A DNA stretch of 64,000 nucleotides. Source: Nemertoderma westbladi. Taxonomy: Eukaryota > Animalia > Xenacoelomorpha. Below are positions 14,701 to 62,505 of the stretch, one piece after another. Each line of letters opens with the position of its first letter. The stretch's first letter is position 1. The DNA is taken from NCBI GenBank assembly GCA_032718475.1, contig JAUCBJ010004651.1, forward strand, positions 62,001 to 126,000. The letters are read 5' to 3'. The position numbers and the translations under genes are program-made. The notes below the pieces were generated by a model. The model did no database searches. It saw nothing but the letters and a program-made list of their open reading frames with translations, and was not told the origin of the DNA.

Positions 14701-15986
14701 GCGCGCTGACCAAGCTCAGTCTTAGAGACTCAGCTGCGGAGAAACTGAGTAGCGCTGGATTTGCCGTCTTTCAAGACGTTTCTATACAGAACCTACATTC
14801 ATCCGTTATACAAAGACCCCGAATATCTACAGGTTATTCTGTCGTGGAAATACAGACAGTGGGTCCACTTACGGAAACCGACGCACCCACTTCGTCTATG
14901 CAGCTGGAGGATGAACCAGTATGCTTGGAATCAGAAGCGATTCAACCTACGGCTTCCCGGAGCAGTGACAATGATTATGTCATAGAGTGGTATCAAGGTC
15001 CACAGCGTCTCACAGCGTACGATTATCGACACGCCAACTACGTTTCCCGAAAACGTTGTCGATTATGCGCATCGAGAGACCACTTCACTCCTCTAGACTC
15101 GAGCGTACCTTGTTCCTATTTCCTCGAACAACCGATGATGGAAATATATTGTGCTTATTGCCGGCTTAATAACTCTCATATATTTGCCGTCTGCCCACAA
15201 TTTATGACTCAATGTCACTACTGCCAACTTAAAGGACACGAAAGTTACAATTGTCCCTTTAATCGCGATTTAGAGAGCGTAGACGAGATGATCACCCTGC
15301 GATACATCCGAGCTTGGGAAGCGAACGCAGATTTACATTGCGAATCCAGACATCGCTATTACCCTGGACGAGCTTACGAGGGAGTTTACGCGTTCCATCC
15401 TTACCTATTCGCGTCGATTGAACAGAAAACACGCGTACCAAGTTACGAGTTAATAAAGCGTGTTGGTGAGTGTATTTCCACCAAGTTTGTCAGAAAATAC
15501 CTTAGAAATATCAACCCTAATGATATAACCACATATCACCTGATCAATTTTATCCGTCAGGACCCTGAGTATGGCGACATTTTCGTGAACTCGCATCCTG
15601 AACTCCAGGAAGTATCTCGGCGCCCATACGAATATCGAACCCGAGAACGCGAGCTGGAGAGAACCATTAAACCGAGAAAGTTCCTCACCACTCACGGTCC
15701 ACCCACCGCTAGTGTCCAGACGACCCGTCAAGGACCCGTAGGAGCTGCTGTCCTGAGACGCGCTCTAAAGGCCGTTAGATCTCGCTCCACTGAGGTTGAT
15801 ATTAATCAACCAGGTACTTCGACCGGCGGGTATACCGATCGTAACCCTGCACCTTCTGATGCAATTATATTGCACCCTTCGCCTAGGAGCTACAGCCCTC
15901 CTCGTAAAGTGGCTCGCCCCAAAGAGAAAATGACTCTTGCTAGCTTTAAAAAACTGCGTAAACGCCGTCCGCGCAAGAAAGACTAA
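11733..15986 (+). CDS. Accessory retrotransposon protein (1417 aa): WRN/EXD-like DEDDy 3'-5' exonuclease domain, CCHC zinc knuckles, C-terminal basic NLS
   Basis: ExoI GVVTYDNEG (D718,E720); ExoII LPQPVLAMLFNERILKIGSAVYGD (D819); FVDTQLIA; SIGHLA..YG..K; ExoIII-like PLRPSLAIYTIFE (Y927,E931); CHYCQLKGHESYNC and CAYCRLNNSHIFAVC; KKLRKRRPRKK. Confidence 0.78.
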   Translation: MTELIEDDLGIRERYTLPLQAFVDSLIRGDADPTTTEDDGRYIEPPMSQEQLTRELDYRKFTARYTHRNGTYMDFLTTGHPIDLHDTDDVDTEREMVLFKYHAQRSRNDKLRIEHENSIRNKLEREDVEEPDKRNGFNDYLEFLRETYLNVASQQNLETRYPQGIHPDPIMELKRLYFTMMYLTADRPLPVVPDSFEQMEEYCKTGERSPAFPLQDVRLWYYCDECPRPNQQIERHKHPRRRCAKHSFTRYTYGSFERNLFDVSPTVARLKRSLNKPMIRVPEYSVRPPHSQVIPQTLDPNSITDPPELYSLFKDLVLPEQLIGGTPVVGSLDIRQPYLAGLGRGHLISPFNPYNRPGLPPIQPVTEVEESVIRNALDAIRQKIGKGTYDCLEKRKLQQQVQAVKELALPQFDREIQNLEEDIERGRTYSLQEFLDERLQQQAEENQLEERHIELTEREEAALAQPEAQILVTDLYSKTILHPSMVPQFKDKLFATVQPQPVNTDLSSHELVADAPMLQRPPIEAARVDGLLVEPPDNRADLVRRMVHDVNIRARPLPDSFYGIKDHPYYVNLKQYYMVKPEDPTHSLKFLPLINPLDLVELEQLQKHLDQLVKLNSFRKPYNISRIEKEISPPYNLDGFIKTRLVHWNLDVLFEEERIKRYGDVETYTTQCLKYGDLPNANECATLWHPVGMTLENATKEWNETLNVIEMYGVVTYDNEGSVPVGELGTTRMIHIRGLAGSTHVFTRACSDVIDYSFETLTEIQKKLRHGQFELAQRYVTDTERKPAMGIDGSILPQPVLAMLFNERILKIGSAVYGDLQNDFRNMENIPYPFVDTQLIAPWAEGRGFFRTMYANTPSGITKVQRTSIGHLAFQEYGWNFKVGNPINYQQVYGDHYSRLYFDGPLTAPGAVYSFMSVPLRPSLAIYTIFENAALAGWLADVCSRTIRAHPLILGTKLAKLDEHNKFIRFECFRCFPTPFRNVDSQFKDRALTKLSLRDSAAEKLSSAGFAVFQDVSIQNLHSSVIQRPRISTGYSVVEIQTVGPLTETDAPTSSMQLEDEPVCLESEAIQPTASRSSDNDYVIEWYQGPQRLTAYDYRHANYVSRKRCRLCASRDHFTPLDSSVPCSYFLEQPMMEIYCAYCRLNNSHIFAVCPQFMTQCHYCQLKGHESYNCPFNRDLESVDEMITLRYIRAWEANADLHCESRHRYYPGRAYEGVYAFHPYLFASIEQKTRVPSYELIKRVGECISTKFVRKYLRNINPNDITTYHLINFIRQDPEYGDIFVNSHPELQEVSRRPYEYRTRERELERTIKPRKFLTTHGPPTASVQTTRQGPVGAAVLRRALKAVRSRSTEVDINQPGTSTGGYTDRNPAPSDAIILHPSPRSYSPPRKVARPKEKMTLASFKKLRKRRPRKKD

Positions 15987-16064: not shown

Positions 16065-17277
16065 TGTAAAAGCTTTTGTGGGATAACTGATTCGTTTGCC
16101 TTGTTGGCCAGTTCCCCCCCGGTCGCTAGAATAGTGCAAGCTTTAATAGCACGCTTAAAATAGTGCAAGCTACCAGCTTATTGGCTGATTTGCTGTACGC
16201 AGGTATCTGGGCTCTGTTTAATCGGCCAACTAGCCTAGGAAGGTTGCGTCATAGCCTTGTTTTTGTATCTCCCAATAGAATTTGAGTTAGCCTTGATTTT
16301 GACCTATCACAGAGCTACTGAACTGAAAATTTCCTATCTCACTGCTCTTTCTCTGTGTTGAACGGGAGCTTCGTGGAATAAGGGTAGTTGGTATCCTCGT
16401 ATAGAGAGTAGTCACGAGTTTTTCAAAGCCACGAAAGAACGGCTTTTTAGTGTTTTGTGCTTTCTGCTTTTTAGCTCAACACTAGTAGGTTTAATTATAA
16501 GGACATATATCCTTTAACTGCAATTTCGTAATCACTGCAAACTGCTGACGCACACGGCTTTTAATCTTGAATATCTCACTGCTAAAAATTACCTGCTCAA
16601 TCAATACGGTATACTGCTATTTGTTGTCGGTTATTCATTATATTTGTTGATGAATTATTATATTGGAATAACGAGAAATAACCCCGAAAACCCAATATTC
16701 TTGATATACCGAAGGTAAGAGAGAAAGGTTACCTATAACGATTGTGACTTATGTTAAAGTGGTTTGAAGTGAATCTAATGTTATTTGATAGACCCTACAT
16801 GAGTCAGTCTGTGTTCCTTTTATATGTGACTAAAATCAGTGAAGATTGGCAGATTAGTGTGCAGTATTGTGCAGCATTGTGTATGAGTGAGTCTGTTAAA
16901 GAAGCAATTCCTAAAGAATGCGCCATATATGTGAATTATAATTAAGCCATATCGTTGTGAGTAGTTTAAGTCATAACTCTGTTTATATAAATAAAGCGCC
17001 ACGTCCTAAAGGAACTGTTAATATTCCCTAAGGTGAATAATATTGTCAGAGATTATATAATACTGTCAGTCGAATAATACATTAGGCTTACATAGCAATA
17101 AAATTAAACCGTCGAACCCAATCTCCCGGGAATATCCAGCGGGTGAATGATCGCGCACAGATTGGTTTCGACTAGTGTAGTGAATCAAATTCTTGTCATA
17201 GGCTAAAAAGCGATTTAATATCTAGAAGACATCTTAATTTGGCGGATTAAACTGCCAAAGGTCTGAAAGCGCGAACA
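16065..17277 (+). repeat. 3' LTR of element B (1213 bp, TGT...ACA)
   Basis: PPT TGGGAGCGG|TGTAAAAGC; ends AAAGCGCGAACA; 3' half homologous to LTR A. Confidence 0.88.
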
Positions 17278-17482
17278 GTGGGCGTATTAAAAAGTATCAG
17301 ATAAGGCATATAAACTACTACATAACTTGTTGAAATCGGAGTAGGAGATAAAGGTTTATTAAGTTATTTTTATCACACTGACAACATTGAAACCTTCCTT
17401 ACATACCGTGTAGTGCGTTACATACCACTAATAAACAGAAACTAACCAACATAACTTAATTCAAACCATTTTATTGTATCAG

Positions 17483-18678
17483 GGCGAACGTCGAGTATCA
17501 GCCACGAAGTGCTCGGGTTCGATACCGAGGGAAACCCATTGGATTTCTCCAACGGGCGAACTGTAGAGGAAATCTGTGAAACCGCCTCCAAACTCATCAC
17601 ACTCATAGACCTCGCCGGCCACCACAAATACCTAAAGACCACGATATTCGGGCTCACAGGCCACTGTCCCGACTTCGCTATGCTTGTCGTCGGCGCCAAC
17701 ATGGGTCTGGTCGGCATGGCTCGCGAGCACCTGGGCATCGCGCTCGCCCTCCAGGTCCCCATATTCGTGGTCGTCTCCAAGATCGATCTGTGCCCTGCGC
17801 GGGTCACGGACGCCACTTTGCGGCAGGTCGAGTCCCTGCTGAAGAGCCCCGGGTGCAACCGGGTCCCGCACCGGGTCGTCGACGCCGGTGACGTCACCGT
17901 CGCGGCGCAACGTTTCCCGGAGGGCGCCGTGACCCCGGTGTTCGCGATCTCGTCCGTGTCCGGGGAGAACCTCGGGTTGCTGAAGCGGTTCCTCAACCTG
18001 TTGGCGCCGGGCCGCAGTCGGGTGGAGTTGGAGAGGCTGAGTCAGGAGGAGACGGAGTTCCGTGTGGAGGAGACGTTCGAGGTGGGGGCCGTGGGTGGCG
18101 CTCTGTGTGGTGAGGGGGGCGCGGGGGGCACTCAGTGCGGCTCGGGGGGCACTCAGTGCGTGGTTGGGGGAGCCTTACAACGCGGCGTCGTCCGCGAAGG
18201 CGACGAACTGGCTGCGGGGCCGCGAGTCGACGGCTCTTTCTTCCGGGTCCGAGTGGTCTCGGCGCGCCGCAACCGGACCCCGTGCCGCGTGGTCCGCGCC
18301 GGCCAGTGCGCCACGCTGGCGCTGGAGGGCGCTACACCCTCGGCCTACCGCAAGGGGATGGTGTTGCTGAGCGGGTTGCTTGGGGTTCACGCCTGCGACA
18401 CGTTCGAGGCCGACGTCTACGTTCTTTTCCACGGGAGCGCCATCTGTCGCGGCTTCCAGGCCACCGTCCACGTAGGTAATGTGTGCCAGACCGCCGCGAT
18501 AGTTCGTCTCAGCACCACTAAGGGGCTGCGGACTAACGAGACCGCCACCGTGACCTTTCGCTTTCTGCGTCACCCAGAATTTATTAACGTCGGCGCTAAA
18601 CTCCTCATGCGAGAACGATCTACTAAGGGGATTGGACACGTTACTAAAACCTTCCCAATGGGCGACGACCCAACGTGA
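17483..18678 (+). CDS. GTPBP2: GTP-binding protein 2 (translational GTPase, EF-Tu/eEF1A-like), terminal exon; upstream exons outside the window
   Basis: Acceptor TTTTATTGTATCAG|; GRTSSISHEVLGF..EEICETASKLITLIDLAGHHKYLKTTIFGLT; REHLGIALAL; SKID (G4); beta-barrel domains to TKGIG; TGA at 18676. Confidence 0.9.
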
Positions 18679-39890: not shown

Positions 39891-42218
39891 TCTTATAGAC
39901 TTTCGCGCTTGCGTTTCGAAGGCCCTCACAATGCTGTCAGGATAAATGTCCCAGGTAACATAAATAAATCCACATGCTCATGCATACCATACTTTGCAGC
40001 TTATGCTCATCCTGTATCAGTAGACCGGCGTGAGGCCTATCAATGTTACTGTAACAATTCCATATCGGTATGTAACAGGAGATAATGAAAAATTGTCTAA
40101 CCTTTAAGCAGCATGTTAGAATGAGCTTAGGAGCGTTGGTCTCCCTCGAATGCATGTCTGAGCAGTTTTCCATATTTCTCGGCGAATGTGTTGTCCAGTC
40201 CAGGTCGTGCGCAGGATGTCAAAACTCGCAGCCGATAGTGATTGTGAGAAGTTGGAGAATTCGTCAATCTACAAAGATTAGAAAAAACTCTTCGCTTACT
40301 AACATTTTAATGCTAAAATATATAAACAATTATTACATTAGTAAAAATTATTAATTACTGATCTAGAATAAATAATATGAAATCAAAAGAATACGTTTCT
40401 AGAACGTATCAAGCAAAGCAAACAGTCGGCTGAAGCCGGAAGCGACCAGAAGGCTCCCCTTTCGATAGCTACTACCCGAAGGTATTGTAGTAATCTTCAA
40501 CAATTCATTATTCTGTTTTACTCAATTTGTTAAATAATTTAATGTCAATTTCGACTTCCCATATAGGATAAAAGGATAAAGATGCCATTATCATTCTCAC
40601 CTTATACTTTGCCAGTGCATTATTCTCCTTTAGGGCCTTTTCCCATTTGGCTAAATCCTCAGGAGTGTCCTACCGGCTGGTCGGGGAACAGGACCTCTGA
40701 ATGAAGAGTCTCTCCTTGAATCCATTCCATTATTTTTAAAGTTCCTTGGACACTCTTCAACTCCTCCTTCCTCCTTTATTTCCTCCAAGGAGGGAACAAT
40801 GTTGTGTAGAGGGGGCATGACAGGCAAACACCCACCCCGACCCCCCTCTCGAAGTTTGTTTATTGTGCAGATAATTTTTAACAATATTTAGTTATTTACT
40901 GTAACTAAAACGCAAGCTGCCTTTCGGATCTCGTGCGTGGTCTCTGTGGCACGTGCCTTATTGGTCTCATTGTTAATCCGCCCATGCATTTGATTGTGCA
41001 AAGCGCCACTCCCCCACCCCCACCTCTATCTGGTTGTGAAATACATGTACCCACCTAGGTTAATTTTGCATTCATTTGTTAGGGGTGGGAGAGGGGGTGG
41101 GTGTTCTGCCATTCTACTGTATGTATTATGTGACAACCGCGCACATTGGAACTGATATATCTGTAGGCCTACTGTAGGTATGGCTGTATGGAACCGTACT
41201 GAAAAACATCCATATACTGTACTGTAAGTTACGGTCCAGGAAAACCAAAACATGAACACATTTGGTTCATGTGGATGCAAATTAAATAATTAAAATTATA
41301 TAGTTGTACACCCTACAGTTATGTAGGCCTAGTTGACACGCACTGAGGTAGGTGTGTTAAACAATCTGCACTGGCAAGGACTGGACAATAACGATAATGA
41401 AAACAATGGAAATACACGTGCAAAGTTCTGTACCACAGAGGGCCTAATAAAGATAACATTAGGACAACATTAGAATAATATTGTTATTCAACGCAGTTGA
41501 AGTATGACCCGCCAACATTCGAAAAACAACGTTAGAATAACCTTTTCGCATCATTGTTATAACAATGCTATGATTCATTCCCAATGCAAATTCATTTCCA
41601 AAGAAAATATTCTGATTTGAATATTTCGATAACATTGGAAATAGATTATAATATCAATAGTATGGAATATAGTATTAGAATATCATTCAAAATATGTTGC
41701 GATTAAATGTGTTAAATAAAAAACATTGCTGTTCCAATGTATTCTGAATGTCATTTCACTATCTGAATTTTAATATTAGTATTTAAATATTATTTTAGAT
41801 TACTTCAATATTAAAATGTAAAATTTTGGGTTTTTCTCAAATAATTTGTCTCATTGCACTATTGCACAACTTTTTAGCAGCATTAAATTTCCAATACAAA
41901 ATTAATCCTCGGATACTTCTGGTTTGCAGGGTATACTCTATGCTATGGTTACTAAAAACAGGACAACAGTTTAGTAGGAACCGATACATTATGAAGAAAG
42001 GGGTCATAATGAGTAAAAAAATGTGGTCAGAAAAAATCTTTTTTTCATAATAAATTATAATACCGTTAATAATTAAAGGTATTAAAGATGTATGTAGCAT
42101 TCTTAATGAGGCTGTGTGCCAATTATAAATATACAGTGTAGATATATATATATACTTTCTATATACTTATTCACGTATATATACTTACGACTATATACTT
42201 CATTACGTAGCGTAAATA

Positions 42219-43102
42219 CACCATAACCCTTAATACAACAACCATTTTTAGGGGGTCGGAGCACCCCCCCCCCCCCTAATTTTTTTCAAATTTAATTAAA
42301 ATGCTACGAAATTTGGTATGATTATAGATCGACACCTTTTCTTACTGGTGGCCTGGCCGGATTTTTCAATTTCTCACTTATTTCCATACAACAATCCCTT
42401 AAAAAATGTCTATTTAGCAATGTTTAACCACCTCCTAGACTTTATTTTACGTCTTTGAAATGTAATTTAGATATCATTCGAAGCGCCTTCGTCTGTAGAT
42501 TCCGAATCTGAAAACAGTTTTAAATTTAACCAAACATTGGTAAAGATATTATCAAAATACTAATGTGTAAATTTAGAGACGTAAATCGCTATAATTCTGA
42601 TGTTTTGTTGTCTTTATTCTAGAATATTAATTATTATTAAGCTGAGCGTTTTAAAACTCCATCTTGTTTTTTCATTACCCATAATTAATATTCTAGAATT
42701 GAGTAAAAAAAACATTAGAATTATAGCGATTTACGTCACAAAAATTTACACCTTAGTATTTTGATAATATCTCCGTAAGTTCTTGGTGAAATTTACAACG
42801 GGTTTCATATTCGGAATCTGCAGATGAAGGTGGTTCTAATGATATCTAGATCTCATTCCCATGACGAAAAATAAAGCTGACACGGAGATGGCTAAATATT
42901 GCGAAATAGACGATTTTTAAGGGCTTGTTGTATCGAAATAGCTCATAAATTAAAAAATCTGACCAGGCCACCAGTAAGAAAAGGTGTCGATCTATCATCA
43001 TACCAAATTTCGTAGCATTTTATTGAAATTTGAAAAAAATTAGGGGGGGGGGGGGGGGGCTCCGACCCCCTAAAAATGGTTGTTGTATTAAGGGTTATGG
43101 TG
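42219..43102. mobile_element. Tc1/mariner-type foldback MITE (884 bp, nearly whole-length palindrome)
   Basis: CACCATAACCCTTAATACAAC../..GTTGTATTAAGGGTTATGGTG; TA at both flanks; arms pair for ~400 bp. Confidence 0.88.
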
Positions 43103-43144
43103 TATGATATCGTACTGTATAGTATATACGTACATATTTTTCAG

Positions 43145-45009: not shown

Positions 45010-46075
45010 TGGTAAGGCAAAAAACCTGTAATGCATTAACTACCTTTCACAGCTTAGCCGTGATGATTCATATTACGACATCTAACAGCTGGTTGCTGAC
45101 ATGGAAACAGCCATTAGATGCATGGTTCTTTGTTTGGCTTGAGCCAATCAGAGCGATTTTTCCTGTCAACGTGTAGCTTTTTAGTCGATCATAAGGAGAG
45201 TGTTCAGTCTTACTGTTTTTTCTTGATACTTGGTTGTTATTGCTGTCTAAGCCAGAAACACCGGCATTTTTTGGATAGATACTGCTGTACCGTAAACTGC
45301 TTGAATTATCGAAAGTATAAACTGTTACCGGCGGTGTCACCTTACTTAATTAACATACTCACTTAATTTAATTGCAATAATCATATTGTTTGTACTGTTA
45401 TTTTACCGTCAGTTATTAATTGTAAATATTTGTTGATGGAAATATTGCTATTTGGATAATACGGATAAATCACCCAATTCCCAATTTTCTTGATAACACT
45501 ACAGGTTAGAGAGACCGGCTATACATAACAATTGCGATTTATATTAATGTGGTGTGTATTGAATCCAATGTTATTTAGCAGACCCTACGTGAGTCAATTA
45601 CTGCTCTCTTTATGTGTGATCAAATGTACTGACTGTCGGCAGAATAGTGTGTATGATTGTGACTGGTAACAAAGTATTTCCTAAAGAATACGCTTTATAC
45701 TTTAATCATAAGCAGTATCGTTGCGTTTAGTATAAGTCCTAGTTCTGTTTAAATAGATAAAGCGCCACGTCCTAAAGGAACTGTTAATATTTCCCGAAAG
45801 CCAATAATATCTGTCAGAGATTAATTATTAACGATCTATCGAATAATACATTAGGTATACACTGCAACCTTACACTGTAATAATACAATTCAAGCATCCG
45901 AATTCAGTCTCCCGGGTGTAGATCCATCGGGTGAATGATCGCGCATGGGCTGACTTCGGCTAATGTTTTGTGTATTAGCATAAATTATTGTCGTATGCTA
46001 AAGTGGTTTTAATTAACTAGAAGACATATAAATTTTGGCAGGTTAAACTGCTAAAGGTCTTCAAAAGCGCGAACA
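45010..46075 (+). repeat. LTR of the A family (may extend to 44347 with a different U3)
   Basis: Aligns to 10021-11067 with scattered substitutions; ends GCGCGAACA; no TSD found. Confidence 0.9.
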
Positions 46076-46159
46076 GGTTCTGTCTCACCGTCAACAGTTA
46101 CTGTTGACGGTTGACTACTGTAGTACCAATAACAAAAATAGAACAAATATCTTTGAACC

Positions 46160-47564: not shown

Positions 47565-48401
47565 TGTAAATGGATCCCCCCCACCCCCAGATTTTAATAA
47601 GCCTTATAAATAAAATTAGAATAAGCTTAAATAAGCTTTACACCTTTCCAGCTATTTAAATATACTGTTAGGTGTTGAGTAGATAACCTATTCATTTAAT
47701 ACTAATACCGTAGACCTACTTCAAAACTCACTCCATTAATTATTTCAAGGCCAATTATCCTATCATATTGTGGCAAACAAACGGGCATTTTCGGGGTTTT
47801 ATCAGAACGAATCATTAAAAGTCCCTCTGGCATTTAACTAATAAGAAACCCCCCAATATCTAATTTAAGGGGTTTTATCAGAAATTAAATCCCATATTGA
47901 AGGTGCTTAAACAGAGTTTTTTCCTATTTAGGTGGTTTTAACAGATCAAGCGATTTTTTGACGGGATCTTATTTTGAGTTTTTCTCGGTTTAAGGCTGTT
48001 TTAACTTCTGGGGTTTTATTAGAAGGTGGATATCAATCTAAGGTACCAGAAACACCAAAAACCTGAAAGTGGCCAAAAATCGACTTAAGGTATTTTACCA
48101 GATTACCCACGATAATAAATTTGGTAAATAGGTACCCAAGGTGTATTAATGATATTTATTTGCACTTGCACTGTTGTAACCCATGACTGCAATATTGTCC
48201 CATAATTCTAAATAAAATGCTCACGCAAAATGCAATATTTTATTCTCGATATTTTTCAACATTCGATATTTTAACTCTCGATAATTTTACTCTCTATATT
48301 TTTCAACACTCGATATTTTTACTCTCGATTAACACTCGATATTTTTACTCTCGATTAACACTCGATATTTTTCAACACTTGATATTTTTCATCTCGCGTT
48401 A

Positions 48402-49177
48402 TGTTGGAAGAGACGTACCTAATACACGGAATCCTGCAATATCATACTGTAAAGTCTGTGAATCAAAGCATAAATCCAACCTTCTCACCAAAACAGTAAA
48501 CTCTAAGTAAGCAAATCTATTGCAGTATCGGTCTCTTATAACCAGTGAGGCAGAAGACAGTCTACGAACGGACAAACTTCGATAAAACAAAATCCCGCGC
48601 AGCGAATCCTAAAATCGTGCTGACTCACTGACGGACTAAAGGCGCTCGTATACTTTGCCGCGGTGTGATTTATATGGGGTGGGTGAGGGTTGCTAGCTAA
48701 GGGTCTAACTAGCGGGCAAACTGCAGTACGGACAAAATTATTTTATATATTTCGAGGTGTAAATAATTCTTAACGCGTGTGTGTTTTGATTCTAACAGTC
48801 GAAATCGGTTTTAGATCCTTCACATATATAATTACTGGGTCCGGTGTACATTTTACAAATATTCTAATTTTGTAGTTTGTAGGTCCAATACTCACAAATG
48901 ATAAGGCTCCTTCCCCTTTTGTGTATTTCCAGGACTCAAATTCAGGCATAAGGTTAATACTACGCACGGAATTCGGCAATTTAATTTAACAGGTCCCTAA
49001 TACTAAGAAGAAATGTGTTAGTTTATTACAGTAGGCGTACAGTTACGAATATCTAGCCTGGCTTTCTATCTAGAATTTTGGTTGCCTAGGTGGGCACGGC
49101 AACTCCTTATCAGAATGTCGGCGGGGACACGGTAGATGTTAGTATCCCTAATAGCCTTAATTTATATGTGCGCCTAG
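48402..49177 (-). repeat. 3' LTR of C, truncated at its U3 end
   Basis: Matches 55984-56742 apart from a few substitutions and a 16-bp indel. Confidence 0.92.
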
Positions 49178-49204
49178 AGATGAGATTTATGACAAATTAA
49201 GCCA

Positions 49205-52200
49205 TTATAAATTATCGGACTCCAACTCAATATTGGTGATGACTTGATTGGTTGACCTTGACTTATGGATGTGAATTCGCTGAGCTTGTAGCTCAGCGCG
49301 TGGTGTCGTCATGTACTTAGTAGGCATGGTCTTAGCCTTAGAAGTAATGAGCGAAACATCGAACTCATCTGAGTCTACTTGTCTGCGCAGATACGCTGTA
49401 ACTCCAAAGCCGTTGTCACTGGTGTCGGAAAAACAATGTAATTCTAAGTTGTCAAGAAATGTCGTCTGTAATGGAAAATATACCCGGGGTATGGAATAAT
49501 CTTCTAGTGAAGACAATTGTGCCTCCCATAAGTCCTCATAAGTTTTCCATAAGTCTACTTGTTCTGATGAGATCGGTTTGTCCCATGTCAGTCCATCTTT
49601 CCAAATACTGCGCATGTATATTCTTGCTTGCAGTATTATTGGGCTGATAAAACCTAATGGATCGAACAATCTACTCAGTTTTGACAAGCAAGACCTCTTT
49701 GTCAGAGAATCTCCTTGAGCGTCCAGTCTTACTTTCATTCGAAAGTTGTCTGTGTTCGGATCCCAAAATAGTCCCAACACTTTTGTCGTTGGTAGTGGTT
49801 CGAATTCCAAATCAATGTCACCACCCCCACATTCGGTCGTTTCGAATGAATTCACTAATTCGGTACTATTTGAAGCAAACTTGGTGAGGTTAAAACCTCC
49901 GCCTGCTAAACAGTCCCGTAATTGATGTGCTACTGTTATAGCACGTTCTACTGTGTCACAACTTTGTAATCCATCGTCAACGTAAAAGTCTCGTTCTACT
50001 ATTTGGATTACCTCTGGGTCATACTTATGTTTCTGGTCCCTAGCGGTCTGCTTTAGGGCGTACATAGTACAATTTGGGCTGTCTCTGGCACCGAATACGC
50101 GAACTTGGTTGACTTAAGTCTCCATCCGGGTACCAGAGGAACCTCAAACTGTCTCTGTCTCGCTCTAATGCTTGCACTTGGTGAAACATCGCTTCTACGT
50201 CGCAAGTAAATGCTACTTGACGTTGACGGAAGCGCATAATCACCCCCATGAGATAATTATTCATGTTTGGTCCATCCATCAACTCCGTATTGAGAGACAT
50301 TCCCTCAAAAAGAGCCGCGCAGTCATTAACTATGCGTACCTTTTCTGGTTTGTCGGGGTGTCTCACATAGTGATGTGGCAAGTAGTATGTCTGATCTGTC
50401 ACAATCTCTGGGTTTGTCATTCGGATAGCGTACCCTTTTGTCAAATACGTCTCCATTTGAGTATTGTACTGTAAATGGGCTTTCTCGTCCTTTAATAAAC
50501 GTTGTCGTATTGAGTTTAAACGTTTTAAGGCTAGCGGATAATTATTTATAAGTTTAGGACATTGGTTACGCCATAACATCCCTACCTCATAATGTCCGTC
50601 TTTCGTCTGGCGGATAGTATCTTCCATGATCTTTAAAGATTGTTTCTCTTGTTCCGACATACATGGTTCGTAACTACCTGGTTCAGCGGTATCTTGTTCC
50701 AACCATTTGATAGTTTTCTCTGTTAATTCTTTGTCCAGTGCAGCTTGTTCCACTTGACAATTTCTTAATGCGTCGGCATCGACGGGCATTGATAAAGTTA
50801 TTGGTTTAGGTAGACTCGCAAGCCTTCCGGCGTTATCATCAAACTTACCAAACATCAATCTCTAAACTTACCTTTTTGTGGAGTGGTTTCTGCTCTTTGT
50901 GACTTATTGTACTTGCTACACACGTCGTACTTGTAACATTGTCGTGTTTTGTCGAACGTTGTGTAGTATAGTCTCTGTCGTTTGAAAAGGAATGAGTCAA
51001 AGTTGTAGTTAATAAACTACATGTACTTTGCACATCATCTTCCTCATCACTTATATCTAGTGTGCGCACAGGAGCTCGAGTATACCAACCTATCGGCGTT
51101 CTGCAGGCGTATGCGTTTCCTGCTACGACTACCGATGGTCTGGTTTCCCACACTTGATATAAGTTGAATTGGTCTGTCCCGATCAGCATTGCTACTGACC
51201 TGTAATTAACAGGACATTCAGGTACACCAAGGTGTCTAAAATACTTACGGTCCTCCAAGGGTTGTTCTGGCACAGGACCCAGTAGGTTACTAAAGTCCTT
51301 TGTGGCCGCAAAGGTTAAATCCTTAAAAGGTAGCAAAGACCTCTCCTCTTCGCTATGTTGCGATTTTGGAAGAAAGGTGTCCAAGTTTAACTTAACTCTT
51401 GTCACTGGTATTGCACGTTGTCCATGCGTACTACTTACAGTATATCTGACGTTCTTACCTTGTTGAAGGTCCGTCACGACGTCAGCTACCTTCTCATCCA
51501 CGTAGCTGTGAGATGAGGCTGAATCCAAAATAGCGTAGATCCGTTTGCTCCCTTTGGTGCCCATAATCTTAACAGGAATTACGCTAAATCCCTTCAGTTG
51601 ATCAGGCGTCAGAAGCGCAATCAATGGTTGTTCGTCCCCAGTGTTGAAATATACGTCGTCGTCTTCGGACTCTTCATCCGACGACCCGGATTGTTCTGGG
51701 AAACAATCCCGTATATGCGTCACAAAAGTTGGTGTTGTTTTCGATTCTCGTGTCTTGTATGCAGTGTTGCATTTCGCTGCTGCTTCTGGGTGTTCCCTGG
51801 TGAAGCGTTTCATCGGTGTATGACTATCCGTGTGGAGCAAAGCGTCATGATTGCGTCCACATGAAGGACAGGTGTCCATATTTGGGCAATCCTTGCGGAC
51901 ATGTCCGTGTTGTGTACACCTCCAACAAGAATCTAACGGCCTTATTTGTAGCCGTCGTTCTTCTGAGTTTAACTCGCGAAATAGTCGACATCCCCTTAAC
52001 TTATGGCTAGTATGCCGCTTACCCATCCGCTCGCAGTATTGACAACCGCTGAAGTCGGCAGTTAGTTGCTGTCTAGTCTGTTTGATCCCAATAGGTGGGG
52101 ACACTTTACAACCGTCGGAAAATTGTCGGGTTTCTGTTGGTGTAGCGTAGGTGACCGTCCTTGTGGATGTCGTCTGTGGGTTTTGTCGGTTGGAAGATGG

Positions 52201-55142
52201 CAAAGTAGATATTAATAGGTAGACATCTTCCAATCTCAAAAATCCACCCTTTTCTTCTCGCTGATACTCGATCTTTCTCCACTCCCTACGAAGTCGATGG
52301 TGTAGTCTCCCTATTATTTTCAATAGGACTGTAGGAGTGTTTGCGTAATCAAGTTGTCCAATTGATCGTAACGTCGTAATGGCGTTCTTAATTTCGTCAG
52401 CTAGTTTCAGTAAGTCAATGGGTTTTGTAATAGCCCCCCCCCCCCTTACAGAGTTCCTCTATTACCGACTTGGCCATACTTACTGTACCTCCGTAAATTG
52501 AAGTTAAGCGATCGTAAGCTAATTCAAAGGCGTCTGGTACACCGACAAAAGTCTCTGCTAGACGTTTTGGTTCTCCCGTCAGTGTTTTAAGCAGATAATT
52601 GAACTTTTCCCTCGATGTAAACGCACATGCGGCAATTTGAGATTCGATATAATCCACAAACGTATGCCAATGCTTGGAGTTACCGGAGAACTTTGGTGGT
52701 TGCTGCACTGGTAGTCCTTGCCTAGCTGCGAATTTAGCTATCTCCTCAGCGACATTCAAAGCTTCGCGTCCTTGGGTGGCAATCAAGTTAATATTCTCCC
52801 GTCTTGGCGCTTTCCTTTGGTACGAAGTATTTCTTGAAGGTATCGCTCTTTGCGGATCCTTCGGATTTCTAGTGTGTTCGAATTCTGTATTTCTCGAACT
52901 ATCGGTTTGAGCTTCCTCTAAGCGTTCTTCGATCTGGGCCAACTTGTTGACAACTGGTCGCATTAGGTCGGCGAATTGTTGCGTACAAATCACGTCCGTT
53001 GGTTGTAACGCTTTCTGTGGTGGTGTATTTTGTGGAGGATCATTCATAAAGGAATTATCTGAACACTCACGTTTGCATTCATCGGCCGCTCCTGTTCTAA
53101 ACACCTCGCGTTCGGGATAATCCGATTCGCTTGAAGTACTACTAATGCCTGGATACGGTGGCGACGTGCTCGCGTCCATTGTGTCGTCCGAATTCTAACA
53201 TTCCGTTTTGAAACATCGTCTACTGGTCTCCGTCGTTCGGTAGGCTCGCAAGTCTTCCTCGAAGTCGTAGATTGTGATGTAAACTGGTTAAGCGGTCGCG
53301 TGTCTACTGGTCTCCCTTGTTCGGTAGGCTCACAAGTCTTCCTCGAAGTTGTAGATTGCGATGTAAACTGAAACTGTGGTCGCGTAATGGCGTTTGCGTC
53401 TAAAGTCCTCGTAGGTCTAAACACGGTTGGGTTTGCGTAGTGAGTGACAGGTTTGGGTGTTGAAAGTTGACTCACCTGTTTAATCGTCAGTAATGCAGGC
53501 CCTGCCAATAAACTGCTACGATCTGTATTTGGCAGGTTACTTACCTTGACTTTCGGAATAGGCGATGACGTTGCTCTTCGCGGTATAAACTTGTCCGGAA
53601 TAACAAACCTGTGTTCCGTCGCATCGTGTATAGGAGATATACTGCTACTACCCGCAATCGAAACAGGTCCTTTATTCGTAATTGGTGCAAACATAGGTGT
53701 TACTTGAGGAAATCGTTGACATAAGTCTTTAACTATTTCCCGTTCTCGCTCAGGTGCTCCTACGCTTCCTTCCTTTATTCGTTCCTGAATTTGATGATGC
53801 CTTACCTCTATCCGGTCTAGATCGTGTCCGTCTCGAGATCTCATTGATCGATCGCGGGCTTGAAGATCCAGATCTTCCTTGGCGTTGGCTAATTCTCTCG
53901 CCTTCTTTTCGAGTTCGAAGTGAAGTTTAACTTCTTCTCGCGTTGTTCCGTCTGTTGTTGTTGCGCCTTAAACTCCGCTAGTCGTATAGCTGATTGAGCC
54001 TTTATCTGTCATTTTCTCAACTCGGCTCGGGCTTCCGAAACTCGCTTTTGTTCTTCCAACTCTGCTGCTTGTCGTTCCAACTCAGCTGTTGCTGCTCGTT
54101 GCGCTAACTCAGCTGCCGTTGTTTGCTGTGCTATTTCTAGCTCTAACCTTTCCATCTCAGCTGCTTCTAGTTCGGCTGCTTCTTGCAGATGAGAGATTCT
54201 CGCAACATTTGCGACGCGTAGTTTCTCTTCCTCTACAGCTGCTTGTACAGTTAATAATTGAGTTTGTTCCTCAATTTCTCGTTGTTGTCTGTAGAACTGT
54301 TGTTGCTGTCGAGAAATTTCTGACGTTACCATACTCACCTCGCCAATTTCGCTGCGAATACTCACCAATGATTGATCCAGTTTCCAGATCCAGATTCCCG
54401 GTGCCAGTTCGATTTGTACGGGTGAAGTTTCCCTCGTAGCCTCCGGCACAGTTTCCCAATCTCCGACGTCTTCGCCGCACATATGTAAGTGATCCGTCAG
54501 GTATTTCAATTGTCCATCCAGTCTGTACAGTTCCTGTTCTTCCTCGGGTTGCAATAATTTGTCGGAAACTGACTAACCTAACAACTGATCCTCTTGTTCT
54601 TGTTGAATCAGTCTAACGGCCGTCTTAAACTGAATTAGTTTCTCCCTAGCGATTATTAATTTCTCGAGGATCTTAAACTGTGTGTCCGTATCCTGTCTTT
54701 GTCTAGCTAGATCTTGTAGACTGATTAGGTTACTTACGGACTTATGTACTTTACTCTGTACTCTAACCTGTAAGGTATAGAACTCGAACCGGGACATCGG
54801 AGCGGTCAACTCGTTTAATATGCGTTGGACTTCTCCAATACTCCTGGTGATATGCGCCATGTATCCTCCGAAGCTTCTAACAACGCTCTCTTGGCTTCCT
54901 ACTGAACTTACCATGTCCGTTTCCCTTTATCTAGGTTGCGGAACTGTTAGAAAATCCTCAGTCCTGCCGTCGCCTCGTACTATGGCATCCGGTACTCCCG
55001 TTGGATGTACTGGTGACGCACACGGTGTAGGTTCGGTAGGCTCGCGAGTGTTCCCTTGTGGTTCTTCCGCTACTGACTTATCTGCGTCACATGAGTCATA
55101 GTCGGTATGTGTATTCTTCGTATAGTCCTGTTTGTCACTCAT
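49205..55142 (-). pseudogene. Frameshifted Bel/Pao gag-pol (Gag, zinc knuckles, protease, RT, partial RNase H)
   Basis: PPKFSGNSKHW..KFNYLLKTLTGEP; CWRCTQHGHVRKDC; ILDSASSHSYV; YYLPHH..KVRIVNDCAA..DVEAMFHQV; FYVDD; LHCFSDTS..TTPRAELQA; split over eight ORF pieces. Confidence 0.92.
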
Positions 55143-55972
55143 TTCAGTAGTTGTAAGTCAAGTAAAATGAGAGTGTCAAAGTATCAAACTTACCGTATTT
55201 ATATCAAAACGGTACTAATTACAATTCAAACATATAAAATTAGCCTACCGGCCGATTTTATAGCAAATGGATAAAATTAGCCTAGCTGCCAATTTTACAG
55301 CAAATAAATGTCACGGAATAAGTATATAATAAAATTAGCCTATCGGCCAATTTTATAACAAATAAATCGGATAACAATATATGTTATCAAAATGTAATTC
55401 AAACACAAATGATACGGACTAATTCAGCAATAAACAAAGAAATCGTACGGAATGCATAAATACTTGAGACAGTGGAACCCACAATAATTTTAACTAATAC
55501 GGTAATGCCTAACTGATTAATGCAACCTTTCGAACTTACCCCCTCCAAAATTCTCCAGAAAAACAGATTCCCAGATACAAACCGGACGTGAACCTTTCCG
55601 TTTCCAGCGTTGCGGACGAAGTGCGATTTTCCCCAACCAAAATTGTTGAGTTATCAATCTCCCAAACTTGCTAAACACGGTCTTGCTCCTGTTACAGTCT
55701 AGAAATGAACTCTGAATCCTGAAAAACAAAAGAGTTTGGTTTTACTTTTACGAAAAATTTTGTACCGGTACAATATGGTATTTAAACCCTTTTGAAACAC
55801 CGGTATTCAATTCCAAATATTTTACACACGGTTCAAATCAAAATTTTATTCAAAAAATCAGCACTTAGCTAATCAAATACAAATTTTTACCTCAAAATAC
55901 AAATTTTTTCAAATAATTTTTGTCCTACTGAACTATAGTTCAGTAAAACACATTCCTACTGTTGTGTAAAAC

Positions 55973-55983
55973 CACATTCCTAC
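55973..55983 (-). promoter_or_regulatory. Non-canonical primer-binding site GTAGGAATGTG of C (second copy 55949-55959)
   Basis: Abuts the LTR end CCAACA; exact reverse complement at 56987-56997 in the LTR. Confidence 0.65.
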
Positions 55984-57878
55984 TGTTGGAAGAGACGTAC
56001 CTAATACACGGAATCCTGCAATATCATACTGTAAAGTCTGTGAATCAAAGCATAAATCCAACCTTCTCACCAAAACAGTAAACTCTAAGTAAGCAAATCT
56101 ATTGCAGTATCGGTCTCTTATAACCGGTGAGGCAGAAGACAGTCTACGAACGGACAAACTTCGATAAAACAAAATCCCGCGCAGCGAATCCTAAAATCGT
56201 GCTGACTCACTGACGGACTAAAGGCGCTCGTATACTTTGCCGCGGTGTGATTTATATGGGGTGGGTGAGGGTTGCTAGCTAAGGGTCTAACTAGCGGGCA
56301 AACTGCAGTAAGGACAAAATTATTTTATATATTTCGAGGTGTAAATAATTCTTAACGCGTGTGTGTTTTGATTCTAACAGTCGAAATCGGTTTTAGATCC
56401 TTCACATATATAATTACTGGGTCCGGTGTACATTTTACAAATATTCTAATTTTGTAGTTTGTAGGTCCAATACTCACAAATGATAAGGCTCCTTCCCCTT
56501 TTGTGTATTTCCAGGACTCAAATTCAGGCATAAGGTTAATACTTCGCCCGGAATTCGGCAATTTAATTTACCAGGTCCCTAATACTAAGAAGAAATGTGT
56601 TAGTTTATTACAGTAGGCGTACAGTTACGAATATCTAGCCTTTTGGTTGCCTAGGTGGGCACGGCAACTCCTTATCAGAATGTCGGCGGGGACACGGTAG
56701 ATGTTAGTATCCCTAATAGCCTTAATTTATATGTGCGCCTAGCAATAAACTGCCCTACCGCCTGAACGGTACAATCTTAATTCAGGTAAAAGCACAGTAA
56801 CCTCTCCAAGCCTACAAACTCCAATGCAAACAATGGACACCGTTGTACTACAAAACAACCAACCAGCGCACCGATACCTGGCAAATGAGTTAGGCGTACA
56901 GTTTACTGTACCCTACCAATGTGTATGCCTTGTACTGGTGTGCCTGTGTCCTATCTGTGTACTAGTATCTCTCTGCCTGCCCTCCCGTAGGAATGTGAAG
57001 GTCTACTGCGGGTTTTTATCTGGATCAAGACAGTACAGTTCCTAAATTTAATTTTTAGCGCACAGCGTGTCACTACCTCTACCTTTGATCTCAGGTCTTA
57101 CACTTAGGTAGCAAGGCATCAAACGCTGTCTAACCTTTCAGGCGATGGGCGAATAACTAAGAATGGATATTGCGGGTGGTCTCCTTCCTACATTCCGCCG
57201 ATGTTCCCGTTTATTGCCACGGCCCGCTGTCTAGCCTGCCATATGTTCCTCAGTTGGGTTCACAGTGGTGAAGCATGATAAAACAGATGTAACAAATACT
57301 TCTAACTTTATTACAAAATAAACGATAAGGGTATATAATGTATAATAGCATAGATTAAAGTAACGTACTAAACACAATAATCTGAATACTAAATGAACTG
57401 AAGAAGTTTTATAAGTGAAGTGAAGATAGTTAACTAATGAACAAATCGCACCCTTTTATAGCAAATTAGTGCTGCTAACAATCGAGATAAATCTAGATTG
57501 TTCTATGAGTTCCATTAGATTTTTAAAGATAATCATTGGTCCAGCAAACGCGTATCTTGCACGACATTGGTTACTGTCAAATAACTGCAATCACATTGGT
57601 TAATCTACCTTAAGCAGATACAATTAAATCGTAGCGGTCAATTCAAATGAGTTGAAATCTAGCACAAAAAATAATTCGCACCTGCTAGGATTTGAACTCG
57701 ATACCTACTAAACGATTTTCTAACGCATAACCAACTGAGCTACTGAACCACTTGAACAATGTTGTACGAATAGCTATAGTAAATGCAAATAAGGACTTAA
57801 TGTAATCTTTATAACAAATTAATTCCAACAAAATAAAATTTTGAAAATCCACGGCTTTTATGAGGATATAATTCTATA
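55984..57878 (-). repeat. 5' LTR of C (~1.9 kb): tRNA-like boxes, CCAAT boxes, TATAAAA (57454-57460)
   Basis: Bounded by the TSD; outer terminus reads TAT instead of TGT; only 55984-56742 can be checked against the other LTR. Confidence 0.7.
57678..57749 (-). ncRNA. tRNA-like sequence with A box TAGCTCAGTTGG and B box GAGTTCAAATCC inside the U3 of C
   Basis: Boxes at 57731-57742 and 57688-57699, followed by a T-run; cloverleaf is degenerate. Confidence 0.6.
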
Positions 57879-59395
57879 CGTTATTTTTACTCTCGATATT
57901 TTTTAATCACATTAATTTCCAACACTCATTATTTTTACTCTCGATATTTTTCAACACTCGATATTTTTACTCTCGATATTTTTCAACACTCGATATTTTT
58001 ACTCTCAATATTTTTTAACACACTATATTTTTCACCGTTTGGTCGCATCAGGGGGCAAGGTCGAGCTCGATCGATGAAGCGGTAAAGAATGAGTAGAGGT
58101 GACCGGAAGGCTCGTGAGCCTACCGTTAGCATTAAGTACTCAGGATACGGACTAGATCAGTAGGACAAACTCTATAGTAGTCAGGAGGACATTTATGTTA
58201 TATTATTTGAGATTATTATGTTTCGTCTTATTTGAGTTAATTTAATTTGGTGAATTTATTATGTAATTAAATGATTATTATGTACGTTCTAAGAATATTT
58301 GCCTTAAATCATTTATATTATGTGATTGATGAAAGTTTTGTATTTTATGCACCCAAATTTAATATTAATTAGATAGTAAAGCTTGTATTTGTTGTATGTT
58401 CATAATGAAGGTTTTATATTTACGTATTATTTGGTCTAGCTAATCTTATTCACTGTTTGAGTTCTCGCTTAACTAATCTTACGATTATTATTCTTTAGTT
58501 AAAGTTTTGTTATTTGTAAAACTTTAGTAATTTGTTTAAAACTGTGTGATTACATTAAAAATATGTAACATGTACGTAGCTTTTAGCGTATCTATCTTAA
58601 GACAGCCAACGTTAGAAGATGGCTGCCGAAATGCTTAGGCCACAGTAACGCAATGGGGAGGAATGCCCGCAACGCATAAGGAACCTACACCATTTGCCTG
58701 CGCCCAACTAGACCATGATTCGACAGCTAGAAAGTGCCCATGCCCGAGGTAAGACTTTGTTCGACGCCTTTGCCCACCGTAAGACCGTAGATCAGGGCGA
58801 AGTATGTTGACGTCCTGGGACGCTGTAAAATTTAGGAGTAAAATATCTCAGATTCAGACAGGTGCGAGCTGTTTGCTAGTACACGCGAGTACACTAGGTG
58901 CAAATAGCATGCTCTATAATTTGGTGACTTTACCGTACTACCGATTCAGTACTGGTTAGCGCTGTAGGCTTTGCTGTTGTTTGTAGCTAAAGAATGAAAG
59001 CGAAAATAAAAATTCTGGCTCACCCAGCAAGGAGGAGAGAGGTGAAACTATCTCTGTTTCAAATTTCATGCAATCTCATTACGATTTGTAAAAAATTTTT
59101 TTTTTTTTTTGGGGGGGGGGGGGGGGGGGGAGGTACCTGAATAACGACACTATATTCCAGGACATGGTGTAACATATTCTAGTAGCTAGCGCCCGGTATA
59201 ATTATTTTGTTAAAGTCATCAAAACCTACTATTATCACGAAACCCAAAATTTCGCCTTATCGTAACACACACACACACACACGTGTCTTATGATTCTGTT
59301 TTCTGTTCTACTGATATTATACCCTTTTGACTGTCTTTTCTGTTGGCAGTAGTGTTTTACGCTAGTGTTTGGCTGACTCACTGGCTCGTATTATA

Positions 59396-59528
59396 CCCAT
59401 ATAAATCACAACGCGGCAAGTCTACAGTAGTTTTGGTCCATTAGCGGTAGTTAGGATTCGCTACGCGGGGATTGTTTTCTCGTGAGTTTGGTCTGTTTCT
59501 GTAGACTGTACATATGCCTCACCGGTTA
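59396..59528 (+). mobile_element. LTR fragment related to the C LTR, opposite orientation
   Basis: CCCATATAAATCACA.CGCGGCAA, TTAGGATTCGCT.CGCGGGATT and TGCCTCACCGGTTA match the reverse complement of 56122-56260. Confidence 0.7.
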
Positions 59529-59707
59529 GGGACTGGTCACCCTGATTATCAAGTTAGCCCGGGCAATTGATTCGCCCAAGTTTAGTGGAAGACATCAGGC
59601 AACGATCTCGCCGCCAGTAGTAGTTTGTGTACTTTGGTATCTATTATTTAGGCCCGATTGTTGGGATTTTACAGTAGATATTGTACAACAGTTACTGGAC
59701 TTTACAG

Positions 59708-62505
59708 TAGGGGTAGCAGAGAGGAGTTGGTACACATAGAGGGTGTAGGGATACCAGAGAGGAGTCGGTACACATAGAGATTGTAGGGATAGAAGAGTGG
59801 AGTTGGGACATAGAGGGTGTAGGGATAGCAGAGAGGAGTTGGTACATAGAGATTGTAGGGATAGAAGAGTGGAGTTGGGACATAGAGGGTGTAGGGATAG
59901 CAGAGAGGAGTTGGTACATAGAGATTGTAGGGATAGAAGAGTGGAGTTGGGACATAGAGAGTGACTACGGGATACCAGAGAGGAGTTGGTACATAGAGAG
60001 GGTAGGGATAGCAGAGAGGAGTTGGTACATAGAGATTGTAGGGATAGAAGAGTGGAGTTGGGACATAGAGAGTGACTACGGGATACCAGAGAGGAGTTGG
60101 TACATAGAGATTGTAGGGATAGAAGAGTGGAGTTGGGACATAGAGAGTGACTACGGGATACCAGAGAGGAGTTAGTACACATAGAGGATGTAGGGATAGC
60201 AGAGAGGAGTTGGGACATGGAGGGTGTAGGGATAGCAGAGAGGAGTTGGGACATAGAGGGTGTAGGGATAACAGAGAGGAGTTGGTACACATAGCGGGTG
60301 TAGGGATAGCAGAGAGGAGTTGGGACATAGAGGGTGTAAGGATACCAGAGAGGAGTTGGGACATAGAGGGTGTAAGGATAGCAGAGAGGAGTTGGGACAT
60401 AGAGGGTGTAGGGATAACAGAGATGAGTTGGTACACATTGTGGGTGTAGGGATAGCAGAGAGGAGTTGGGACATGGAGGGTGTAGGGATAGCAGAGAGGA
60501 GTTGGGACATAGAGGGTGTAGGGATAACAGAGAGGAGTTGGTACACATAGCGGGTGTAGGGATAGCAGAGAGGAGTTGGGACATAGAGGGTGTAAGGATA
60601 CCAGAGAGGAGTTGGGACATAGAGGGTGTAAGGATAGCAGAGAGGAGTTGGTACACATTGCGGGTGTAGGGATAGCAGAGAGGAGTTGGGACATAGCGGG
60701 TGTAGGGATAGGAGAGAGGAGTTGGTACATAGAGAGGGTAGGGATAGCAGAGAGGAGTTGGTACACATAGAGTGTGTAAGGATACCAAAGAGGAGTTGGG
60801 ACATAGAGATTGTAGGGATACCAGAGAGGAGTTAGTACACATAGAGGGTGTAAGGATAGCAGAGAGGAGTTGGTACACATAGCGGGTGTAGGGATAGCAG
60901 AGAGGAGTTGGGACATAGAGGGTGTAGGGATAGCAGAGAGGAGTTGGGACATAGAGGGTGTAAGGATAGCAGAGAGGAGTTGGTACACATTGTGGGTGTA
61001 GGGATAGCAGAGAGGAGTTGGGACATAGAGGGTGTAGGGATAGCAGAGAGGAGTTGGGACATAGAGGGTGTAAGGATAGCAGAGCGGAGTTGGTACACAT
61101 TGCGAGTGTAGGGATAGCAGAGAGGAGTTGGGACATAGCGGGTGTAGGGATAGGAGAGAGGAGTTGGTACATAGAGAGGGTAGGGATAGCAGAGAGGAGT
61201 TGGTACACGTAGAGGGTTTGGGGATACCAGAGAGGAGTTGGGACATAGAGGGTGTAGGGATACCATAGAGGAGTTGGGACATAGAGGGTGTAGGGATAGC
61301 AGAGAGGAGTTGGGACATAGGGAGGGTAGGGATAGCAGAGAGGAGTTGGTACACGTAGATGGTATAGGGATACCAGAGAGGAGTCGGTACACATAGAGAT
61401 TGTAGGGATAGAAGAGTGGAGTTGGTACATATAGAGGGTGTAGGGATAGCAGAGAGGGGTTGGGACATAGAGGGTGTAAGGATAGCAGAGAGGAGTTGGT
61501 ACACGTAGATGGTGTAGGGATACCAGAGAGGAGTCGGTACACATAGAGATTGTAGGGATAGAAGAGTGGAGTTGGTACATATAGAGGGTGTAGGGATAGC
61601 AGAGAGGGGTTGGGACATAGAGGGTGTAAGGATAGCAGAGAGGAGTTGGTACACGTAGATGGTGTAGGGATACCAGAGAGGAGTTGGGACATAGAGGGTG
61701 TAAGGATAGCAGAGAGGAGTTGGTACACGTAGATGGTGTAGGGATACCAGAGAGGAGTCGGTACACATAGAGATTGTAGGGATAGAAGAGTGGAGTTGGT
61801 ACACATAGAGGGTGTAGGGATACCAGAGAGGAGTCGGTACACATAGAGATTGTAGGGATAGAAGAGTGGAGTTGGTACATATAGAGGGTGTAGGGATAGC
61901 AGAGAGGAGTTGGTACACATAGAGGGTGAAGGGATAGCATAGTGGAGTGGGACATAGAGAGGGTAGGGATAGCAGAGAGGAGTTGGTACACATAGAGGGT
62001 GAAGGGATAGCATAGTGGAGTGGGACATAGAGAGGGTAGGGATAGCAGAGAGGAGTTGGTACACATAGAGGGTGAAGGGATAGCATAGTGGAGTGGGACA
62101 TAGAGAGGGTAGGGATAGCAGAGAGGAGTTGGTACACATAGAGGGTGAAGGGATAGCATAGTGGAGTGGGACATAGAGAGGGTAGGGATAGCAGAGAGGA
62201 CTTGGTACACATAGAGGGTGAAGGGATAGCATAGTGGAGTGGGACATAGAGAGGGTAGGGATAGCAGAGAGGAGTTGGTACATAGAGATTGTAGGGATAG
62301 AAGAGTGGAGTTGGTACATATAGAGGGTGTAGGGATAGCAGAGAGGAGTTGGGACATATAGGGTGTAGGGATAGCAGAGAGGAGTTGGTACACGTAGATG
62401 GTGTAGGGATACCAGAGAGGAGTTGGGACATATAGGGTGTAGGGATAGCAGAGAGGAGTTGGTACACGTAGATGGTGTAGGGATACCAAAGAGGAGTTGG
62501 GACAT
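59708..62505. repeat. Purine-rich 36/38-bp satellite (GTAGGGATAGCAGAGAGGAGTTGGGACATAGAGGGT and variants)
   Basis: Direct reading; produces spurious long ORFs on the - strand. Confidence 0.97.

Follow-up and report, generated by a model that had tools for sequence, protein, structure and literature searches.

A BEL/Pao retrotransposon with a primer-binding site matched in its own LTR: a probable case of self-primed reverse transcription

Self-priming, the use of an element's own RNA instead of a tRNA to start reverse transcription, is described in the available parts of three sources for Tf1 and Tf2 of Schizosaccharomyces pombe, for Tj1, for Tosmo1-3 and for the Tf1/sushi group of Ty3/gypsy chromoviruses (PMC7175516, PMC4600332, bioRxiv 2022.12.06.519325). 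For Tf1, the folding of an RNA primer onto the primer-binding site (PBS), its cutting by RNase H and its extension by reverse transcriptase (RT) have been shown, according to the accessible text of PMC7175516. As stated in the excerpted text of bioRxiv 2022.12.06.519325, Tf1 requires a central primer:PBS duplex together with two duplexes between PBS-adjacent sequence and the LTR downstream of the primer. Self-priming is also predicted for the Tcn1 (gypsy) and TAR/Houba/Osr-1 (copia) plant lineages, in the portion of PMC6317226 that was available. For the Belpaoviridae, the ICTV describes LTRs between 0.2 and 1.2 kb and an 18-nt PBS that pairs with the 3' terminus of tRNA-Arg or tRNA-Gly, and calls BEL/Pao replication poorly understood (PMC8742986). 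The words 'primer', 'PBS' and 'tRNA' are absent from a large BEL/Pao survey (PMC3118150), the Sinbad paper mentions laboratory primers only (PMC554778), and the available parts of PMC3601003, PMC5443660 and PMC8220671 do not connect the superfamily with self-priming. In the literature searched, mostly open-access main texts, BEL/Pao elements were nowhere reported to prime themselves.

The window, i.e. the whole 64,000-nucleotide stretch of DNA analysed, contains a defective BEL/Pao LTR retrotransposon, element C, which occupies 48402-57878 on the minus strand and has the following parts.

57879 to 57883, no strand: outer copy of the target-site duplication (TSD), CGTTA on the plus strand
55984 to 57878, minus strand: 5' LTR, TATAG...CCAACA, about 1895 nt, delimited by the TSD, the repeat with the 3' LTR remnant and contigs
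49205 to 54926, minus strand: gag-pol region in several reading-frame pieces, with DUF1759, Cys/His zinc knuckles, protease, RT (FYVDD) and Peptidase_A17
48402 to 49177, minus strand: 3' LTR remnant, the last ~760 nt only, with the primer-bearing part deleted
48397 to 48401, no strand: other copy of the TSD, CGTTA on the plus strand, within a host tandem repeat

The CGTTA pentamers bordering both sides set the insertion at 48402-57878 and the 5' LTR at about 1895 nt. In the self-comparison of the window, the 3' LTR remnant is 97.2% identical to 55984-56742 over 776 nt. The reading frame is interrupted several times and the integrase is gone, the region with the integrase and the polypurine tract before the 3' LTR being deleted in the window copy. 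Element C fits BEL/Pao (Belpaoviridae) in its Gag/Pol domains, DUF1759 and Peptidase_A17, in its paired LTRs, of which the 3' one is shortened, and in its 5-bp TSD. All 79 of the 79 homologues found carry PF05380, with a top identity of 38%. Its assignment to BEL/Pao is by protein phylogeny, while the ICTV description of the primer does not match it. Its proteins being BEL/Pao, element C does not have the Ty3/gypsy chromovirus RT and integrase that characterise the Tf1/sushi group. In a quick tree that included no named references for BEL/Pao subgroups, it forms a long branch next to 57 rows from mostly aquatic hosts. A TA terminus also occurs in two relatives (L015 and L053), at the 3' LTR end. 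A Gag/protease query against metagenome contigs confirmed 0 of 93 candidates, and among viral contigs 0 of 10 and 0 of 31 were confirmed.

Three features, all on the sense strand of element C, define the candidate priming system.

55973 to 55983, minus strand: PBS copy 1, GTAGGAATGTG, at offset 0, adjoining the LTR end
55949 to 55964, minus strand: duplicated LTR end and PBS copy 2, CAACA GTAGGAATGTG, copy 2 itself being 55959-55949
56987 to 56997, minus strand: candidate self-primer (anti-PBS), CACATTCCTAC, contiguous (intron-less) and AC-ending, overlapping an initiator-like TCACATT

The initial annotation had proposed that the sense sequence CCAACA closes the 5' LTR (55984), with GTAGGAATGTG next to it and again 24 nt further on behind its own CAACA, and that the exact complement CACATTCCTAC lies at 56997-56987. 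Both statements proved correct, and the complement is the sole such site in the window. The PBS starts with GTA and TGG is absent from its first 9 nt, so that it does not correspond to the 18-nt tRNA-Arg or tRNA-Gly PBS of the ICTV; instead, an 11-nt complement of the PBS is present in the LTR, in register with the LTR end, as in Tf1-type elements. Dinucleotide shuffling of the LTR gave an 11-mer at offset 0 in 5 of 20,000 cases and at any offset from 0 to 6 in 72 of 20,000; with offsets and splice junctions both allowed, shuffling of the PBS gave one in 4 of 150. The chance level of 5e-4 estimated earlier thus stands for the exact register and is lost once offsets (72/20,000) or splicing (4/150) are allowed. 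A blind scan of the 815 AACA sites in the window returned, besides the two of element C, one 12-nt and one other 11-nt AT-rich match. The 11-mer is therefore not rare by itself, and its weight comes from its position at a true LTR end. No splice junction improves the primer of element C (best 7 nt vs 11 contiguous), and the idea that a fourth element, near 59690, also has a self-complementary PBS was discarded, no match of 9 nt or more being present. Neither tRNA nor Rfam matches were found in the element C region, nor any tRNA in the window or in the 88 loci of relatives described below.

Because the 3' LTR in the window is truncated and corresponds to 55984-56742 alone, it cannot confirm that 56997-56987 belongs to the LTR. 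Its membership rests on the CGTTA duplication and on contigs of other copies. Contigs from four public DNA runs, representing no more than three samples, overlap across 56915-57878, cross both 57192 and 57309-57444, and have their starts at 57878/57879, in one case behind 29 unrelated letters; this support consists of overlapping pieces, with no single contig covering the whole LTR. An LTR that excludes 56987-56997 in other copies, which had been named in advance as evidence against the pairing, was not seen: the contigs span 56915-57878 and the TSD agrees. A start of the LTR at 57192, at the junction CGGCGGAA/TGTAGGAAG, was rejected, as contigs run through it, copies diverge there and the TSD lies at 57879. 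This junction resembles the polypurine/TGT boundary of the relatives' clade and may be a relic of LTR lengthening. Whichever boundary is taken, 57192 or 57878, 56997-56987 is inside the LTR. Among the 40 family variants listed of 117, none falls within 56984-57008, while positions 56975, 56976, 56979, 56983 and 57009 vary.

Candidate promoter and poly(A) signals in the LTR are located as follows.

57453 to 57460, minus strand: candidate upstream promoter TATAAAA(G/A), conserved among copies, which diverge just downstream (57430-57172)
56604 to 56609, minus strand: AATAAA, the first canonical poly(A) signal past the primer (+377 from the primer end), candidate end of R
56250 to 56257, minus strand: TATAAATC, conserved in the diverged LTR fragment 59396-59528, either a TATA box or a variant poly(A) signal

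The start of the candidate primer overlaps an initiator consensus (A at 56996), and a DPE-like AGATA is located one base off the usual position of this motif. GATAAAAA at 57020 was considered as a TATA box and dropped, as it loses 2 nt in many copies and is not conserved. In the relative L065, TATATAAG is found at -31 from the primer start. A canonical TATA near -30 from the primer is present in 1 of 15 elements and an initiator within 6 nt of the primer start in 2 of 15; a fixed spacing of TATA, initiator or DPE over the 15 elements was not found. The fragment 59396-59528 (+) is a diverged (75%) C-like LTR piece that begins at a conserved CCCATATAAATCAC block and is followed by a G-rich tandem array of 36/38 nt (59700-62500). 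In the U3 part of element C's LTR, 57750-57670 (-) contains A-box- and B-box-like (tRNA-like) motifs with no ARAGORN or Rfam match. Contigs of one run (X4) pile up on this stretch more than on the remaining LTR, and it may be shared with another repeat.

A second family in the window, element A, contains a 12-nt self-match in the same register (7/20,000 shuffles), and its primer ends in AC as in element C. The proposal that 'PBS and anti-PBS changed together' between the two holds as an independent co-occurrence in two unalignable families, but not as compensatory change at aligned sites, because the LTRs do not align and the proteins share 24% amino-acid identity. A duplicated PBS is common to A and C and present in none of 13 relatives; in element A, the LTR end and PBS (301-420, +) are duplicated about 83 nt later. 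A predicted LTR-leader helix is likewise common to A and C. In A, the leader pairs with the LTR beside AATAAA (0/300 shuffles), a pairing that could mask the 5' poly(A) signal. Judged from these sequences, A and C probably carry, without an intron, the kind of primer that many relatives are predicted to assemble by splicing.

Family A is also represented by a 5'-truncated solo LTR at 45010-46077 (+), whose primer site contains one inserted nucleotide. Element B has its 3' LTR at 16068-17278 (+), with similarity to A only in the 3' 700 nt. Downstream of pol, elements A and B contain a further large ORF of 1422 aa (11718-15986 and 8295-9759, +), which is open in B and internally deleted in A and has Cys/His motifs near its C-terminus and no Pfam match. 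Amid repeats, 17455-18678 (+) holds an uninterrupted 407-aa frame with GTP_EFTU and GTP_EFTU_D2 matches, and 42216-43105 is an imperfect palindrome of about 890 nt, foldback- or MITE-like.

Relatives were collected by RT-RNase H alignment, which yielded 88 loci or 51 families at 80% identity. Thirteen families with a full LTR were tested, their LTR end being set by the divergence of the 5' and 3' repeats and not by pairing; one of them (L015) was included at 74% LTR identity. The other 38 of the 51 had no usable LTR end, among them L083 with tandem repeats at its ends. L020, L077 and L087, whose ends were poorly set, did not pass; L002 and L016, which belong to the same families, took their place. 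A perfect self-complement of 10-14 nt at offsets 0-5 after the LTR is present in 11 of 13 families, each reached in at most 1 of 150 shuffles. Eight of these 11 match only across a GT-AG junction, with a predicted intron of 76-366 nt, and three are contiguous. The 11 families contain nine distinct primers, because L002, L032 and L078 share one, and the primer ends in AC in ten families and in ACT in one. As for the two remaining families, L040 shows its match (10 nt, 0/60 shuffles) only when the donor is relaxed, and L085 fails the perfect-match test (15/150) but shows by eye an 11-nt junction match with one mismatch. TGG at offset 0-1 occurs in 3 of 13 relatives, two of which pass the strict test, the third being L040. 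The primer lies 78-202 nt from the LTR end in passing relatives, compared with about 1 kb from the PBS in element C. In 7 of 11 passing families it is upstream of AATAAA/ATTAAA in the LTR, which fits cis priming from genomic RNA. Element C falls outside the clade of tested relatives on its long branch (support 92, quick tree), so the relatives show a common signature, not close kinship. Nine contigs of prokaryote assemblies (L080-L088) contain BEL/Pao elements, four of them with both LTRs, and are probably host DNA carried into these assemblies.

For the RNA of element C, three helices in the layout of the Tf1 'pretzel' are predicted, i.e. primer:PBS, primer flank:U5 end and LTR segment:leader. 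In addition to the primer and PBS, they involve the following segments.

56981 to 56986, minus strand: 3' flank of the primer, which in the second helix is predicted to bind the U5 end (55993-55988), leaving an AACA bulge
56306 to 56325, minus strand: LTR segment of the third (crossing) helix, predicted to pair with the leader, also a polypyrimidine tract before CAG at 56303
55911 to 55930, minus strand: leader partner of 56325-56306, its 5' part alternatively closing a 13-bp hairpin (55950-55921)

The primer:PBS1 helix has a predicted energy of -15.6 kcal/mol. The primer-flank:U5 helix ranks in the top 2% of LTR windows and is found in the minimum-energy fold, and the common variant at 56983 would keep its pair as G-U. 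The pairing of 56325-56306 with 55930-55911 over 19 bp, noted in the initial annotation, is reproduced as a bulged helix with a predicted -16.5 kcal/mol, and its local-alignment score is reached by 1 of 300 shuffled LTRs. The third helix crosses the first, an arrangement that the folding program cannot model jointly, and competing helices are equally stable. For an RNA starting at 56997, the predicted probability of primer:PBS1 pairing is about 1. With a start at 57010 or 57430, the model instead sequesters the primer in a local helix with 56817-56794, and its predicted pairing with the PBS drops to 0. An 18-bp primer:PBS2 helix is equally stable (-20.7 vs -20.4 kcal/mol). Partial PBS look-alikes in the LTR at 57199-57186 and 56817-56794 (-), which pair with the primer region at -9.6 and -20.4 kcal/mol, are possible decoys by this modelling. 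Over 15 elements, the primer-flank helix is in the top 10% in 4, with a combined p of 0.05. The LTR-leader duplex was rejected as a feature of the clade, being seen in 1 of 13 relatives. By these fold comparisons, the side helices are weak in the relatives and not general among them.

The exact in-register complement, the lack of a TGG-type PBS and the presence of the same signature in different letters in 11 of 13 families argue that reverse transcription in the element C family starts from the element's own RNA and not from a tRNA, a reading to which we assign a probability of about 0.75. By analogy with Tf1, transcription would start at or upstream of 56997, and the RNA would fold the LTR-encoded 11-mer 56997-56987 onto the PBS beside the LTR end. 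RNase H of the RT would then cleave after 56987 (3' AC), as in Tf1, and the freed primer would be extended into the LTR, yielding about 1 kb of minus-strand strong-stop DNA. For strand transfer to work, R would extend beyond 56986, as far as a poly(A) site at around 56600 or further downstream. Under the standard retroviral scheme, the primer sequence would be copied anew into the PBS of the next generation during plus-strand synthesis. Recopied in this way in each cycle, the PBS would stay matched to the primer without paired mutations. More tentatively, and with less than even confidence, a broad part of BEL/Pao might have given up tRNA priming for a self-encoded AC-ending primer, mostly splice-built and elsewhere ready-made. 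The lineage of A and C might then have a layout of its own, with the primer 0.75-1 kb off, a duplicated LTR end and PBS, a crossing LTR-leader helix as a switch, and the choice of start site (56997 vs 57430) setting the ability to prime.

Within the self-priming reading, an unlikely variant is that genomic RNA starts at TATAAATC (56257) and that the primer is supplied in trans, by a transcript from the upstream TATAAAA (57460) or by the 3' LTR U3 of a co-packaged RNA. The conservation of this TATAAAA among copies that diverge right after it, the retention of the 56257 motif in the diverged LTR fragment and the greater distance of the primer in element C than in passing relatives are consistent with such a supply. 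Both the primer-flank:U5 and the LTR:leader helix, however, fit one folded 5' RNA, and the relatives' primer sits upstream of the poly(A) signal. Moreover, the 56257 motif could be a poly(A) signal variant, TATAAATA of L040 overlapping its AATAAA, and a separate upstream transcript is not favoured as the source of the primer. Marginally less improbable is a regulatory or structural function of the pairing, which could act as a switch that controls packaging, dimerisation or translation or that masks the 5' poly(A) signal, with priming by something else. The several mutually exclusive helices of similar energy around the PBS point in this direction, as do the three occurrences of CAGTAGGA, all able to pair with 56314-56306, but a match that stops at the LTR boundary, its length of 10-14 nt and the AC end in nine sequences would be left unexplained, and no alternative primer is left.

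Half-tRNA priming, by a tRNA fragment, occurs in some copia lineages. By comparison with this process, the PBS of element C could be read by an unrecognised host RNA, the LTR match being a chance hit or a captured copy; of the explanations weighed here, this is the least probable. The tRNA-Arg/Gly priming of the ICTV description (PMC8742986) and the modest strength of the element C match when taken alone with all freedoms counted (4/150) speak for a host RNA. It is difficult to reconcile with a PBS lacking TGG in its first 9 nt, with the lack of tRNA or Rfam matches in the element C region, and with PBS sequences that differ between families and each match their own LTR, eight of them only after splicing. 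Self-priming by the element's own RNA is thus retained as the preferred reading. If true, it would establish a third LTR superfamily with self-priming, over much of the aquatic diversity of BEL/Pao, in which the primer often depends on host splicing. It would also bear on whether self-priming is ancestral or arose repeatedly and on the escape of such elements from tRNA-fragment silencing, and annotation tools that require a tRNA PBS would overlook such elements.

In its proteins and organisation, element C resembles the Belpaoviridae of the ICTV, with DUF1759, Cys/His knuckles, the order protease-RT-RNase H and a 5-bp target duplication, but it lacks the 18-nt tRNA PBS and its LTR (~1.9 kb) exceeds 0.2-1.2 kb. 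With Tf1/sushi elements, as far as the available text describes them, it shares the absence of a tRNA PBS and an 11-nt perfect complement in its own 5' LTR, and its three predicted duplexes come in the order of Tf1. Unlike these elements, it belongs to BEL/Pao and not to gypsy, and many of its relatives are predicted to assemble their primer by splicing. In Tf1 the transcript begins with the 11-nt primer, and a transcript of element C may do so too; the candidate primer of element C is about 1 kb away from the PBS, within a 1.9-kb LTR. The PBS of element C is duplicated, and its third helix starts 43 nt after PBS1 instead of adjoining it. Self-priming in element C is predicted from sequence, as it is for Tcn1 and TAR/Houba/Osr-1, which belong to other superfamilies and hosts than element C and for which the available part of PMC6317226 does not describe a splice-built primer. 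Taken together, these comparisons suggest that element C is likely a long-range, intron-less case of Tf1-like priming within a superfamily for which priming by tRNA is described.
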